Source: Pseudomonas aeruginosa (GTDB lineage Bacteria; Pseudomonadota; Gammaproteobacteria; Pseudomonadales; Pseudomonadaceae). From it: a DNA stretch of 32,000 nucleotides. Made by a program: the position numbers and the translations under genes. This document shows, piece after piece, positions 7,412-24,009 of the stretch. The notes below the pieces were generated by a model, which saw nothing but the letters and a program-made list of their open reading frames with translations, made no database searches and was not told the DNA's origin. Location: NCBI RefSeq assembly GCF_001457615.1, contig NZ_LN831024.1, positions 1,740,001 through 1,772,000 on the forward strand, in the 5' to 3' direction. Numbering within the stretch: position 1 is the first letter of the stretch; every line of letters starts with the position of its first letter.

Positions 7412-8578
7412 TCAGCGGCCCAGTGCCCCGCCTACCGGGGCGCGGGCGAAGCGCAGCTCCGGCAGCAGGGTCAGCAGCGCCAGTACTCCGAGGGCCGCGC
7501 CGACCCAGAGCGCGCCCTGCAGGCCGAATCCGCCGGCGATGCCCAGGCCGCCGATCCAGGAACCGGCCATCACGCCGAGCATGATGCAGGCGGTGTGCAC
7601 CGAGTTGACCAGCATGTTGTTATGGCCGACCCGTGCGCCGCGGGTCACCAGCGCCGGGTTCATCGACACCCCGGTCAGGCCGATCACCACCAGCGCCGCC
7701 ACCGCCACCGCCGGAACCTGTCCGAACAGGGCGAAGGCCACCATCGCGGCGATGGCCGCCAGCAGGCCGAAGGCCAGGACCGCGATGGTATGGCGGTCGG
7801 CCAGGCGGCCGACGATGTTGTTGCCCACCAGCGTCGCCAGGCCGTAGACCACCAGCAGCAGCGGTACGGTCGAGGCGGAGAAGCCGCTGACCTCGGTGAG
7901 GATCGGCACGAAATAGGTGAAGCCGGCGAAGGTGGCGCCGATCAGCAGCAGGCTGGTGGCGTAGACCCACCATAGATGGGCGTTCCTGAACACCTTCAGT
8001 TCCTCGCGCAGCGAGCCGCTGCCCGCCGACCCCGGGATCGCCGGCATCAGCTGCAACACCAGCAGGCCGACCAGCACCGCCACCAGCGCCACCGCGAAGA
8101 AGCTCGCGCGCCAGCCGTACCATTCGCCCAGCCAGGTGGCGACGGGCAGGCCGAGCACGGTGCCGACCATCAGGCCACCGAGCACCAGCGACGACGCGCG
8201 GCCGAACTGGTTGCCTTCGACCAGTTCGGCGCAGGCGGTCAGCGCCACGCCGAAGAAGGCCGCGGCGGCGACCGCGGTGACCAGTCGCGCCGCGACCATC
8301 ACCGCATAGCCCGGCGCCAGGGCGCCGATGACCTGGCCGACCACGAACAGCGCGATCAGGCCGAGCAGGGCGTTCTTGCGCGGCACCCGGAGCAGGGCGG
8401 TGGTCAACAGCGGGCCGCCGACGGCCATCGCACCGGCGTAGAAGGTGACCAGGTAGCCGATCGCGGCGAAGGACACGCCGAATTCGGCGGCCAGCGCCGG
8501 CATCAGCCCGGCGACCATGTATTCGCTGGTGGTCAGGGCGAAGATCGCGGCACCGAGCACGTAGACAATCAAAGGCAT
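7412..8578 (-). CDS. MFS transporter (12-TMS, DHA1/sugar-efflux-like), probable exporter of the cluster product
   Basis: 388 aa and hydrophobic throughout, with an MFS-like loop motif (LLRVPRKNALLGL). GGGAG lies 9 nt upstream of the ATG. It is the last gene on the same strand as the NRPS operon. Confidence 0.9.
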   Translation of the reverse strand: MPLIVYVLGAAIFALTTSEYMVAGLMPALAAEFGVSFAAIGYLVTFYAGAMAVGGPLLTTALLRVPRKNALLGLIALFVVGQVIGALAPGYAVMVAARLVTAVAAAAFFGVALTACAELVEGNQFGRASSLVLGGLMVGTVLGLPVATWLGEWYGWRASFFAVALVAVLVGLLVLQLMPAIPGSAGSGSLREELKVFRNAHLWWVYATSLLLIGATFAGFTYFVPILTEVSGFSASTVPLLLVVYGLATLVGNNIVGRLADRHTIAVLAFGLLAAIAAMVAFALFGQVPAVAVAALVVIGLTGVSMNPALVTRGARVGHNNMLVNSVHTACIMLGVMAGSWIGGLGIAGGFGLQGALWVGAALGVLALLTLLPELRFARAPVGGALGR

Positions 8579-8617
8579 GTTTCCAGCTCCCGAGCGGTTC
8601 AGACGACGATGAAGCGA

Positions 8618-8644
8618 GCCACGGCGACCTGCCCGTGCCGTGGC
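8618..8644 (-). promoter_or_regulatory. Hairpin in the azeJ-MFS intergenic gap
   Basis: GCCACGGC-N11-GCCGTGGC has an 8-bp GC-rich stem. It sits in the 91-nt gap between the azeJ stop (8670) and the MFS start (8578). It could be an attenuator or an RNA-processing site. Confidence 0.3.
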
Positions 8645-8669
8645 CGCGCGATGAATGCACGACGGCGAC

Positions 8670-9482
8670 TCATGCCGCCGACGAACCGAAGCCCTGGTCG
8701 GCCCCTTCGGGCAGCACCGTCACGCAGTGGGCGAACAGGTTCGAAGCGCTGCGCACCACGGTCAGCCCGCACTCGGCGAGCAGGGCGTGGAGGCAGGCGC
8801 GTGAATACGAGCGCGAGTAGAAGCCGTCGCTGCCGGTGAACACGGTGCCGTCGTCCCGCGTGTGCAACTCCAGGCCCTGCACCCCGCAACGGCGGTAGTA
8901 GCTCTGGCGGACGCGGGTGGCCTCGGCGCTGTCGCCGAACACCGAGACCACCGCCGCCACGCTGCGCTCGGCGAGGGAGTCGAGCAGCCGTTTCGGCTCG
9001 CGGAAGTTGCCCAGCAGGTTGAACGGCAGCAGGTACAGCGCGCGCGAGCCGACCGAGGCACCGCGCCTGGTGTGGTTGAGGATGTCGTCGACCACCGTGT
9101 CCGCGCGATCGCTCATGCCCTCGCGCTCGATCCGCGTGCGCAGCGTCTCGATCGCCCGCTGGTCGAGGTCGACGCCGAGATAGCGGGCATTGAGCAGGCG
9201 CGCGATTTCCAGCGCCCGGCCGTCGTAGCAGCCTAGCTCGACCAGTGCGTCGCAGCGCAGGTAGGCCATCGCCTCGAAGGTCATCAGGCTTTCCATTTGC
9301 AACAACGGCAGCACGTCGTCCGGAAAGTTGGCCAGGGTCATTATCGTCCTCGGTCCGAACTCCAGCTCGTAGAAAGCCGACTCCCGATGCGTCCCGATCG
9401 TGAGATCCATGTTCTGACTCACCTCTTCCTCCAGCGAATCTCGCTCTGGTGTTGGTTGATCGAAGGCGATGCGCGTTCCCAT
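8670..9482 (-). CDS. azeJ: SAM-dependent class I methyltransferase-fold enzyme; azetidine-2-carboxylate (AZE) synthase AzeJ
   Basis: SAM-binding motif I-like [14 protein letters not shown], followed by GVDLD and DDILN segments. The position (PA3335) matches the enzyme I recall as AzeJ. The start is ambiguous: ATG 9482 (weak SD) or ATG 9410 (MDLTIG..., GAGGTG about 9 nt upstream). Confidence 0.85.
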
Positions 9483-9539
9483 GTCCCGGCACCGCCTTCG
9501 CCTGGCAGAGAAGTGACGGAACGCCGGCGTTCGCTGGCC

Positions 9540-9779
9540 TCAGGCGGCGCGGTGCTTCTCGACCAGCTGGAACAGTTCGTCCACCGTTTCCAGCAGGTCG
9601 AGTTCGTCGTCGACCCCGGTGACGCCGAACTCCTTGCGCAGCTTCAGCGACAGCTCGCTGACCACCAGCGAATCGAAAGCCAGGTCTTCCATCCTGCTGT
9701 CCCGGCTGATTTCCTCCTTCGGCACGCCGCTGGCGACGCTGAGCACGGTGAGGAGATGGTCTTCCATGTCGTTGGGCAT
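9540..9779 (-). CDS. Acyl carrier protein (79 aa)
   Basis: Phosphopantetheine attachment motif LAFDSLVVSEL, acidic 4-helix ACP size, and GAGGGAAG SD upstream of the ATG. Confidence 0.93.
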   Translation of the reverse strand: MPNDMEDHLLTVLSVASGVPKEEISRDSRMEDLAFDSLVVSELSLKLRKEFGVTGVDDELDLLETVDELFQLVEKHRAA

Positions 9780-9792
9780 TGTTCTTCCCTCT

Positions 9793-22922: not shown

Positions 22923-23098
22923 CCCTGCGTCCTCTTCAACAATCCATCGATTCGGCGAACACGGGCACCGCACGCCTCGCCGGACAGGTTCCACCCGTCG
23001 ACGTTTCAGCGCGCCGTAGCCAGCGTGGTTGGCAGGGAAGCGGCGGCACCCGAAGCAAGAGCGGGGTGTACTATTACTTTTGGCAGGCTCGAAGAAAT

Positions 23099-23118
23099 AG
23101 CTGTTAATTCTTGCAGGG
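23099..23118. promoter_or_regulatory. lux-type (las/rhl) box candidate 1
   Basis: AG-CTGTTAATTCTTGCAG-GG satisfies the CT-N12-AG spacing. It lies about 180 bp upstream of the azeB ATG. A TAATAG -10-like hexamer (minus strand, 23071-23076) lies about 35 bp from the box centre. Confidence 0.5.
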
Positions 23119-23131
23119 TAATCGCGTTGTT

Positions 23132-23151
23132 AACTGTTAATTCTGGTAGGT
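23132..23151. promoter_or_regulatory. lux-type (las/rhl) box candidate 2
   Basis: AA-CTGTTAATTCTGGTAG-GT satisfies CT-N12-AG. It is 14/16 identical to box 1 and lies 33 bp from it. It lies about 255 bp upstream of the clpP2 ATG. Confidence 0.45.
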
Positions 23152-23317
23152 GTTTACGAGGCAACTTACAAATCTGTTAGGTTCCGGGAAACGTGCGTCG
23201 CGGCCCTGCATGGCTATGCTTCACGAGATTACCTTCGCCGGTCTTTTCGAAGTTGAAGCAAGCCTTTCGAAAGTGTCTGGCTGATGCATAATGGGCCGCT
23301 CGGAAGAGGCGCATTAA

Positions 23318-23331
23318 CGGATATATATCCG
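23318..23331. promoter_or_regulatory. Perfect 14-bp palindrome CGGATATATATCCG upstream of clpP2
   Basis: Seen directly in the sequence. It lies 73 bp upstream of the clpP2 ATG and contains TATATA, a possible -10 element or a dimeric-regulator site. Confidence 0.35.
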
Positions 23332-23403
23332 CGCCCTGGCGAACAACGAACGCATGCCCTGAAAGGTTTGCCGGATGGATTACCAACAGTTCCAGGAGGT
23401 TGC

Positions 23404-24009
23404 ATGAAAACCGATGACAAGGACCGCGAAGGCGGCGACTCCCACGGCGCCATCGGCGCCAAGCTGATGGAGTACGCGCTCAAGGTCAGGAAGGTGTTCG
23501 TCACCGGCGGGGTCGACGAGAAGATGGCCAAGGACGTCGTCCAGCAGCTGCACATCCTCGCCTCGATCAGCGACGATCCGATCTACATGTTCGTCAATTC
23601 CCCGGGTGGCCACGTCGAATCCGGCGACATGATCTTCGACGCGATCCGCTTCATCACACCGAAGGTCATCATGATCGGTTCCGGCAGCGTTGCCAGCGCC
23701 GGCGCGCTGATCTATGCCGCGGCGGACAAGGAAAACCGCTATTCGCTGCCCAATACCCGCTTCCTCCTGCACCAGCCGTCGGGCGGCATACAGGGGCCGG
23801 CCAGCAATATCGAGATCTACCGCCGCGAGATCGTGCGGATGAAGGAACGCCTCGACCGGATCTTCGCCGAAGCCACCGGGCAGACGCCGGAAAAGATCAG
23901 CGCCGACACCGAGCGCGACTTCTGGCTGAACGCGGAGGAGGCCGTGCAGTACGGCCTGGTCAACAAGATCATCGTTTCGGAACGGGAGATCACGCTGCCT
24001 GGCCAGTGA
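23404..24009 (+). CDS. clpP2: ClpP-family serine protease paralogue ClpP2 (201 aa)
   Basis: ClpP catalytic motifs are GSVASAGALI (Ser), LLHQPSGG (His) and DTERDFWLNAEEAVQYGLV (Asp). AGGAGG lies 5 nt upstream of ATG 23404; the ORF-track start at 23284 is rejected. The N-terminus (MKTDDKDREGGDSHGAIGAKL...) lacks the canonical ClpP axial-loop sequence. Matches recalled PA3326. Confidence 0.95.
   Translation: MKTDDKDREGGDSHGAIGAKLMEYALKVRKVFVTGGVDEKMAKDVVQQLHILASISDDPIYMFVNSPGGHVESGDMIFDAIRFITPKVIMIGSGSVASAGALIYAAADKENRYSLPNTRFLLHQPSGGIQGPASNIEIYRREIVRMKERLDRIFAEATGQTPEKISADTERDFWLNAEEAVQYGLVNKIIVSEREITLPGQ

Follow-up and report, generated by a model that had tools for sequence, protein, structure and literature searches.

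The 32,000-nucleotide (nt) stretch of the Pseudomonas aeruginosa contig NZ_LN831024.1 analysed here (the window, to whose positions all coordinates refer unless another locus is named) carries the aze biosynthetic cluster of this species, formed by the azeB-K operon and the divergent azeA/clpP2 gene (PA3326-PA3336) and making azetidomonamides/azabicyclene, a reading to which a probability of about 97% is given. The cluster is an already described system, and its identification in the window is correct, not new. A first-pass annotation of the same DNA had proposed this identity, including the gene numbers PA3326-PA3336, and had judged the most conspicuous system of the window to be known; the former is supported by exact protein matches, solved structures and UniProt names, and the latter is borne out by the published aze literature.

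With refined gene starts, all 11 proteins match P. aeruginosa proteins of a public protein collection residue for residue, and nothing in them speaks for coding sequences other than orthologues of PA3326-PA3336. The exact sequences of the 10 smaller proteins are each found on at least 1000 contigs, and that of the non-ribosomal peptide synthetase (NRPS) AzeB on 55. UniProt clusters bear the names Q9HYR0_PSEAE for AzeJ and Y3332_PSEAE ('Uncharacterized PhzA/B-like protein PA3332') for AzeG. Regarding solved structures, AzeJ is 100% identical over 249 amino acids (aa) to PDB entries 8RYD, 8RYE and 8RYF, and the reported conversion of S-adenosylmethionine (SAM) to azetidine-2-carboxylate (AZE) by this protein agrees with its identity to the crystallised AZE synthase 8RYD. 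AzeD matches 8S6L (E 4.5e-298), AzeG matches 1Z1S, 'Hypothetical protein PA3332' (E 5.6e-97), and ClpP2 is identical to the 7M1L and 9NDJ chains from residue 41 of its long open reading frame (ORF). The quorum-sensing control attributed to the cluster is likewise reflected in the DNA, as the published RhlR motif from chromatin immunoprecipitation sequencing (ChIP-seq) is present at 23132-23152. Gene calls in 20 other P. aeruginosa assemblies give the same 481-bp spacer length and the same 201-aa ClpP2, and in 18 of them also the same azeB start, and in another strain antiSMASH gave a region 100% similar to 'Azetidomonamide A/B' (PMC11903748).

Compared to the aze cluster of PAO1/PA14, the window has the same gene order, domain content, exact protein sequences and RhlR box, the same structure matches of AzeJ, AzeD, AzeG and ClpP2, and the same flanking rfaD and metal-dependent hydrolase genes; the differences are strain-level single-nucleotide polymorphisms only, such as the one at 23152. 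Some points limit the reach of the identification: the PAO1 locus tags were assigned through names in UniProt and PDB and through published gene tables, not through a direct genome alignment; the product and the enzyme functions follow from the literature together with sequence identity; the key mechanistic source for AzeD and AzeE is a preprint; and what AzeG and AzeK do, and how crotonyl-acyl carrier protein is provided, is inferred. The sequence contradicts the aze assignment nowhere.

The ORF listing and Pfam scans place 10 co-directional genes on the minus strand, from 22922 down to 7412, and a plus-strand Clp protease gene ending at 24009, in a region of ~68-72% G+C within a high-G+C window. 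The first-pass annotation had given this arrangement with the same outer coordinates, which are exact, and each of its by-eye domain calls was matched by Pfam. The genes and their control region are the following:

7412..8578, minus strand: azeK (PA3336), exporter of the major facilitator superfamily (MFS), 388 aa; Pfam MFS_1, E 1.9e-40; exact P. aeruginosa sequence
8670..9422, minus strand: azeJ (PA3335), AZE synthase, 250 aa; 100% identity to 8RYD
9540..9779, minus strand: azeI (PA3334), acyl carrier protein (ACP), 79 aa; Pfam PP-binding, E 1.1e-7; exact match
9793..10785, minus strand: azeH/fabH2 (PA3333), β-ketoacyl-ACP synthase III (KAS III), 330 aa; Pfam ACP_syn_III and ACP_syn_III_C
10789..11214, minus strand: azeG (PA3332), NTF2/SnoaL-like, PhzA/B-like protein, 141 aa; Pfam SnoaL_2 and PHZA_PHZB
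11211..12467, minus strand: azeF (PA3331, CYP107S1), cytochrome P450, 418 aa; Pfam p450, E 3.4e-24; exact match
12460..13374, minus strand: azeE (PA3330), short-chain dehydrogenase/reductase (SDR), 304 aa; Pfam adh_short, E 2.2e-43; exact match
13376..14704, minus strand: azeD (PA3329), stand-alone condensation-family protein, 442 aa (441 from the second ATG); Pfam Condensation and PapA_C
14701..15867, minus strand: azeC (PA3328), monooxygenase of the class A type, dependent on flavin adenine dinucleotide (FAD); Pfam FAD_binding_3
15864..22922, minus strand: azeB (PA3327), bimodular NRPS with condensation (C), adenylation (A), thiolation (T) and thioesterase (TE) domains in the order C-A-T-C-A-T-TE, 2352 aa; Pfam, motif scan and exact sequence
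22923..23403, no strand: divergent control region between azeB and clpP2, 481 bp, 55% G+C; from the sequence
23404..24009, plus strand: clpP2/azeA (PA3326), atypical ClpP paralogue, 201 aa; Pfam CLP_protease, E 4.8e-65

Gene starts were refined from the Shine-Dalgarno context and from overlaps of stop and start codons. Thus clpP2 is read from 23404 (201 aa, with AGGAGG ahead) and not from the longest-ORF ATG at 23284, in agreement with the solved ClpP2 chains and with independent gene calls in the 20 other strains, and for azeJ the most likely start is the GTG at 9422 (250 aa), which has the good Shine-Dalgarno sequence GGAGGA upstream, in place of the ATG at 9482. ATGA overlaps join azeB/azeC, azeC/azeD and azeF/azeG; besides these three, azeB-azeI holds one GTGCCTGA overlap, of 8 nt, between azeE and azeF, and the remaining neighbours are spaced by 1 nt (azeD/azeE), 3 nt (azeG/azeH) and 13 nt (azeH/azeI). 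Meanwhile, wider gaps of 117 nt (9423-9539) and 91 nt (8579-8669) lie ahead of azeJ and azeK, respectively. An Rfam scan of the whole window gave no family over threshold, with no riboswitch or small RNA and no SAM element ahead of azeJ.

In one of the 20 sampled assemblies (L088) azeB is disrupted, with a called product of only 163 aa, and in another (L097) an indel within the first ~60 azeB codons moves the start that is called, giving 2330 aa; either errors of assembly or strains that naturally lack a working aze pathway may be behind the two cases. A hyper-variable 5' end of azeB was considered and rejected, as it corresponds to the indel in the single strain L097.

Pfam finds two Condensation, two AMP-binding, two PP-binding and one Thioesterase domain in AzeB, which were delimited by rescans of sub-segments and a motif scan:

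21633-22904, minus strand: C1, aa 7-430
20124-21572, minus strand: A1, aa 451-933
19863-20051, minus strand: T1, aa 958-1020
18552-19757, minus strand: C2, aa 1056-1457
17034-18482, minus strand: A2, aa 1481-1963
16758-16949, minus strand: T2, aa 1992-2055
15912-16691, minus strand: TE, aa 2078-2337

The motifs read in these domains are HHIVSDA in C1 (from the translation), HHAILDG at 1180 in C2, GGDS and GGTS in the T domains and GWSFG in TE. Aligned by hand with the GrsA numbering, the A4/A5 residues of A1 (D-V-W...H...L...V-D) would resemble the serine code, and those of A2 (D-M-Q...) are presumably atypical. AzeC, encoded directly downstream of the NRPS gene with its ATGA overlapping the azeB stop codon, has class A flavoprotein hydroxylases such as HpxO and NicC as its closest solved structures. 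AzeH possesses the Cys (AACTG), His (HQAN) and Asn (GNT) motifs and passes the cutoff of the NCBIfam β-ketoacyl-ACP synthase 3 model, while AzeI bears a DSL serine motif at residue 36. For AzeK, the Cmx/CmrA efflux family comes closest among the NCBIfam models and stays below its cutoff. AzeJ gives only sub-threshold matches to methyltransferase Pfam families, and the June 2026 release of NCBIfam holds no model matching AzeJ or AzeG; in consequence, automated annotation names AzeJ a generic class I methyltransferase or a 'cyclopropane-fatty-acyl-phospholipid synthase family protein'. Regarding AzeD, which had been called an HxxxDG condensation-like protein, the free-standing condensation family stands and its motif can be specified as PHIIADG (aa 130-136), where proline replaces the first histidine of HHxxxDG (P-H-xxx-D-G), in agreement with the P129-H130 of bioRxiv 10.64898/2026.07.17.738954, numbered from the second Met.

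As described in that preprint of July 2026, azeD, azeE, azeF and azeG were deleted singly and AzeB-F were reconstituted in vitro: C2 of AzeB dehydrates carrier-bound crotonyl-Ser ahead of the condensation with AZE, AzeC carries out the Baeyer-Villiger insertion, AzeE is a ketoreductase, AzeD is a dehydratase founding a 'stand-alone C' clade, and AzeF is the P450 hydroxylase of the final step to azetidomonamide A (bioRxiv 10.64898/2026.07.17.738954). AzeF had been characterised in vitro earlier, in work that the preprint cites. In addition, AzeG is essential in vivo and brings about no change in vitro, and its deletion leaves carbamate intermediates barely detectable and azetidomonamide B at its normal level; proline analogues are also natural products of the pathway, the seven-membered cyclocarbamate is a ClpP-directed warhead, and azetidomonamide A promotes biofilm and pigment formation (bioRxiv 10.64898/2026.07.17.738954). 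The conversion of SAM to AZE by AzeJ has been structurally characterised (PMC11794875). Consequently, among the matters that the first-pass annotation had listed as open, roles have by now been assigned to the condensation-like protein, to the SDR and to the P450, and the physiological role is partly addressed, while the NTF2-like AzeG and the clpP2 link stay on the list.

These steps were shown in the cited papers and are carried to the window by sequence identity only. Accordingly qualified, AzeH and AzeI, presumably with a housekeeping fatty-acid reductase and dehydratase, would supply a crotonyl starter, and AzeJ would convert SAM to AZE and methylthioadenosine (MTA). C1 of AzeB would then N-acylate the serine loaded by A1; C2, of the 'modified amino acid' type, would turn crotonyl-Ser into crotonyl-dehydroalanine and couple it to AZE or proline loaded by A2; and TE would release the chain by cyclisation as an azetidopyridinone. 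Through oxygen insertion by AzeC, a labile seven-membered bicyclocarbamate would be formed, which could either open spontaneously and decarboxylate to azetidomonamide B (azabicyclene) or enter a tailoring branch, where AzeE would reduce the ketone, AzeD dehydrate and AzeF hydroxylate the product to azetidomonamide A. AzeK presumably exports the products, as its family suggests.

The most economical reading of AzeG is that it protects the labile carbamate, probably by stabilising it or channelling it towards AzeE, given that carbamates are barely detectable in the azeG mutant, which makes azetidomonamide B normally. The comparative distribution agrees in part with this role: in a scan seeded with AzeB, azeG homologues were found only in loci that also have azeD and azeE (L001-L004, L009 and L020) and were absent from Streptomyces loci holding only the azeB-azeC core, but in two Antrihabitans loci (L012 and L027), which have azeD and azeE, no azeG was detected. 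Among solved structures, 1Z1S is followed in the ranking for AzeG by three engineered digoxigenin binders, DIG5.1a, DIG10.2 and DIG10.3 (5BVB, 4J8T and 4J9A; E 1e-75 to 1e-79), which appear to have been built on the AzeG protein, as would fit a small-molecule-binding fold.

In the same scan, with one genome per species and P. aeruginosa itself not among the matches, P. palleroniana, Pseudomonas sp. ABY48, Serratia fonticola and Enterobacteriaceae LSJC7 were found to have the whole azeB-K cluster in conserved synteny, together with a linked clpP and with AzeB identities of 63-69%. All four keep azeE, azeF, azeG, azeH, azeI and azeK in this order, and none of the syntenic clusters recovered has the flanking genes of the window. 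A metagenome-assembled genome (MAG) of Parvularcula holds azeB-G and an azeI-like ACP gene without azeJ and azeK, with an azeH-like gene on the far side of clpP, and the Streptomyces and Amycolatopsis loci recovered have azeB and azeC homologues with clpP nearby. The core of NRPS and Baeyer-Villiger monooxygenase with a co-localised clpP is common to the window and to loci L001-L005, L007, L009, L013 and L014, with a varying clpP position. The clipibicyclene and metagenomic MTA/metaze clusters also share the bimodular NRPS, the Baeyer-Villiger monooxygenase, tailoring enzymes and a co-localised clpP, the clipibicyclene/MTA-type product being a seven-membered cyclocarbamate and a covalent ClpP inhibitor (PMC13386464; bioRxiv 10.64898/2026.07.17.738954). 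The actinobacterial ClpP-linked clusters differ in using another acyl starter, in a relocated clpP with an extra regulator and, in the MTA cluster, in an extra acyl-CoA dehydrogenase (PMC13386464), as well as in having no RhlR/quorum-sensing control.

An atypical clpP is likely linked to the aze cluster because the carbamate product class acylates ClpP proteases, and it may be asked whether clpP2 is a dedicated self-resistance gene, whose ClpP subunit would either resist the cyclocarbamate product or serve as a sink for it. In favour of this, clpP stays linked to aze-like clusters while its position changes: it is divergent and upstream of azeB in three Pseudomonas (in P. palleroniana and Pseudomonas sp. 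ABY48 as in the window, with clpP2 80% identical), lies after azeK on the same strand in Serratia fonticola and LSJC7 (48-50% identical), is just upstream of azeB in the Parvularcula MAG and occurs near aze-like loci in some Actinobacteria. Moreover, the cluster-linked ClpP of Serratia belongs to the same atypical subfamily as P. aeruginosa ClpP2 and Listeria ClpP1, scoring 180-194 bits against these two and 115-129 bits against housekeeping ClpPs, so that proteobacterial aze clusters travel with one atypical ClpP subfamily; this association supports a functional link, the kind of which it does not indicate. Related bicyclocarbamates inhibit ClpP, and linked clpP genes are taken as resistance markers (PMC13386464; bioRxiv 10.64898/2026.07.17.738954), the carbamate of a metagenomic relative covalently inhibiting M. 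tuberculosis ClpP (PMC13386464). Furthermore, one RhlR-bound control region is common to clpP2 and azeB.

Against an immunity function, a 2026 PNAS paper reports the genetic linkage of clpP2 to aze, with neither ClpP inhibition by these molecules nor ClpP2-mediated resistance demonstrated in P. aeruginosa, and independently of aze ClpP2 acts in heterocomplexes with ClpP1, in the structure of biofilms and in the conversion to mucoidy (PMC13056064). The Ser-His-Asp triad of ClpP2 is also intact, with the motifs VASAG, HQP and ERD read in the sequence, whereas the linked ClpPs of Streptomyces L005 and L014 have LLQQP for HQP, with the catalytic His changed to Gln; the linked ClpP of Amycolatopsis L013, which has also lost this His, is further degenerate. 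Finally, P. paraeruginosa keeps clpP2 and a strong lux-type box at a locus where azeB-K is absent, as detailed below. On balance, self-resistance as the dedicated function of clpP2 is a real possibility of less than even weight; as a tentative reading, the survival of clpP2 with a single box in P. paraeruginosa would suggest an older quorum-controlled protease subunit on which the alkaloid acts, as target or effector, and not a mere immunity gene.

In the P. paraeruginosa (PA7-clade) contigs L077-L080, rfaD is followed by clpP2, and azeB-K is absent at the locus. These four places, besides which there are nine similar ones, carry a 198-aa ClpP2 variant named P. paraeruginosa and are all alike, and the absence refers to this locus in the contigs examined. 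They are collinear with the window over 4631-7402 (93.5% nucleotide identity; PlpD, a small Rdx-family gene and rfaD) and again over 23454-27317 (91-93%), with 228 bp (2773-3000) from the rfaD stop to the clpP2 start in place of window 7403-23403. The similarity ceases one base past the stop codon of rfaD. This gene and azeK face each other in the window, their stops only 10 bp apart (7399-7414) and without a terminator-like hairpin. The P. paraeruginosa spacer contains one strong lux-type box, CCCCTACCAGAATTGGCAGGC (23.9 bits). Loss of azeB-K in the P. paraeruginosa lineage is a simpler history than gain in P. aeruginosa, because P. palleroniana and ABY48 share the divergent clpP2-azeB arrangement. 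The persistence of clpP2 and a quorum-sensing box without the operon at this locus argues that alkaloid immunity is not the only function of ClpP2. No description of the absence of aze from PA7/P. paraeruginosa was found in the literature searched, most subscription journals lying outside the search.

Regarding the control region, the peak assigned to 'azeB operon / azeA' is among the strongest of RhlR ChIP-seq in PA14, and its motif is TACCTACCAGAATTAACAGTT (PMC10732425); a 470-bp region upstream of azeB, studied in E. coli and P. aeruginosa, drives RhlR-dependent reporters, the azeB promoter having an unusual biphasic, PqsE-inhibited response to N-butyryl-homoserine lactone (C4-HSL) (PMC12096825). 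RhlR multimers have been a speculation of one promoter paper to explain this biphasic response. RhlR bound in the 481-bp intergenic region activates both divergent units. A weight matrix was built from the 25 other RhlR ChIP-seq motifs, leaving the azeB site out, and applied with G+C-rich and uniform backgrounds; the 25 published sites score 13.4-25.8 bits (median 18.9) on the uniform background, and when the spacer was shuffled 2000 times, the best scores had their 99th percentile at 15.9 bits on the first, non-uniform scale. The nine top-scoring positions of the whole 32-kb window all lie within the azeB-clpP2 spacer, where four boxes, all in one orientation, can be listed:

23132..23152, minus strand: box A, published RhlR site, CACCTACCAGAATTAACAGTT; 30.3 bits (25.4 uniform)
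23163..23183, minus strand: box B, candidate lux-type box, AACCTAACAGATTTGTAAGTT; 21.2 bits (14.0 uniform), centre 31 bp from that of box A
23099..23119, minus strand: box C, candidate lux-type box, ACCCTGCAAGAATTAACAGCT; 19.4 bits (15.6 uniform), centre 33 bp from that of box A
23068..23088, plus strand: box D, weak lux-type match with CT-N12-AG, CTATTACTTTTGGCAG; 14.3 bits (10.5 uniform), centre ~31 bp from that of box C

Box A has 20 of the 21 bases of the PA14 motif, with the mismatch at the first base, and its score is level with that of the top site among the 25 others published. Like the las/rhl-box promoters of rhlA, lecB and vqsR, the region has the CT-N12-AG dyad and is bound by RhlR in vivo; compared to single-box LuxR-type promoters, it apparently has several candidate boxes in one orientation, between divergent genes, with centres ~31, 33 and 31 bp apart (~three helical turns). 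Boxes B and C score within the range of ChIP-validated RhlR sites and box D below the weakest published site, so that the former are plausible secondary sites and the latter may be a chance match. A 20-nt direct repeat of the spacer, 85% identical and 33 bp apart, joins boxes A and C, and a 17-nt pattern derived from it has two matches in the window, whereas none of 100 shuffles gave two. In the alignment of the four box regions the similarity is confined to the boxes, and a simple tandem duplication as their origin was rejected on this ground. Neither inverted nor tandem repeats were found in the intergenic region, where the sigma-70 scan also gave no matches and terminator-like matches did not exceed the shuffle expectation.

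Across the 20 other strains, the 481 bp contain 15 variable sites, of which a single one touches a box, namely the outermost base of box A, while the 16-nt cores are free of variation; with ~2.6 variable sites expected by chance, the polymorphism test for selection on the boxes was not significant. At that outermost base (23152), the window has G, while all 20 strains, and PA14 as implied by its motif, have A. None of the 20 strains has a spacer identical to that of the window. The clusters of P. palleroniana and Pseudomonas sp. ABY48 lack the array, which is consequently taken as specific to P. aeruginosa. Lux-like sequences were also seen directly upstream of azeB in LSJC7 (L003 9941-9961; 21.3 bits on the G+C-rich background) and, as a palindrome, in the azeI-azeJ gap of P. 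palleroniana (L001 17180-17201), the scores in these A+T-richer genomes being inflated by the background used. Extra boxes at the azeB promoter do not appear in the published descriptions found, which give one site, most subscription journals again lying outside the search. Taken jointly, an array of three to four boxes cooperatively occupied by RhlR, with or without LasR, in front of an older quorum-controlled ClpP2 subunit that is target or effector of the alkaloid is a tentative proposal, more probably wrong than right in its full form.

It is also unlikely, to a similar degree, that azeB-azeI alone forms the RhlR-driven operon, with azeJ and/or azeK having additional or separate promoters. 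The genes azeB-azeI overlap or lie at most 13 nt apart, against the 117- and 91-nt gaps ahead of azeJ and azeK; the published core RhlR regulon includes PA3326-PA3334 but not PA3335 or PA3336 (PMC9040856); and P. palleroniana has its palindromic lux-like sequence in the azeI-azeJ gap. These gaps and the regulon list may hint at a sub-operon structure. However, a scan of 7200-9900 found no sigma-70-like promoter or terminator-like site in the azeI-azeJ and azeJ-azeK gaps, the gap RNA folds no better than shuffles (z -0.85 and 0.09, respectively), neither gap has a lux-type box above 6 bits, polarity could simply account for a weaker distal induction, and the literature describes a ten-gene operon (PMC12096825).

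As to the product class, an ordinary cluster of the pyrrolizidine-alkaloid type, with NRPS and Baeyer-Villiger monooxygenase only and a proline-based product, is very improbable: although the pyrrolizixenamide/legonmycin/brabantamide family shares the C-A-T-C-A-T-TE NRPS joining acyl-Ser/Thr to a cyclic imino acid, the on-line dehydration and the subsequent flavin Baeyer-Villiger oxygenase (bioRxiv 10.64898/2026.07.17.738954), many Streptomyces loci found with AzeB hold only azeB and azeC homologues, and proline analogues are among the natural aze products, those clusters use proline, lack the AZE synthase and the carbamate-preserving AzeD-G branch and generally have no linked clpP, whereas the operon of the window encodes an AZE synthase identical to crystallised AzeJ and the tailoring genes azeD-G of the carbamate-retaining branch, every one of its proteins is the same, residue for residue, as in the pathway characterised in P. 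aeruginosa, and AZE-containing azetidomonamides dependent on these genes are already published.

The aze cluster is flanked on one side by genes for a DUF2804 protein, a MarR regulator, a FimV-like protein, the patatin-Omp85 protein PlpD and rfaD, and on the other by those for a metal-dependent hydrolase, a fused hydrolase-SDR and an M24 peptidase. The FimV-N-domain protein lies at 1679-3760 (plus strand) and the patatin-POTRA-Omp85 protein of the PlpD type at 3768-5954 (minus strand). For the fused alpha/beta-hydrolase-SDR (25249-27231, minus strand), the longest ORF has 660 aa and runs ~200 nt into the M24 peptidase gene upstream, whereas a 590-aa version is called in related strains.

The aze cluster is established knowledge, and finding it again in a genome scan adds nothing new; the contribution lies in the confirmed coordinates and gene starts, most of the earlier open questions having since been answered in the literature. 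The multi-box spacer and the aze-less P. paraeruginosa locus are less well documented than the rest and provide two modest, testable leads. If the box array is real, its filling as the signal rises could explain the biphasic, PqsE-inhibited C4-HSL response and how RhlR reads this promoter, while a sister species that is aze-minus and clpP2-plus bears on the link between ClpP2 and the alkaloid. The aze cluster represents a conserved quorum-sensing-controlled pathway of a major pathogen, whose product class is a warhead against ClpP, a validated antibiotic target.

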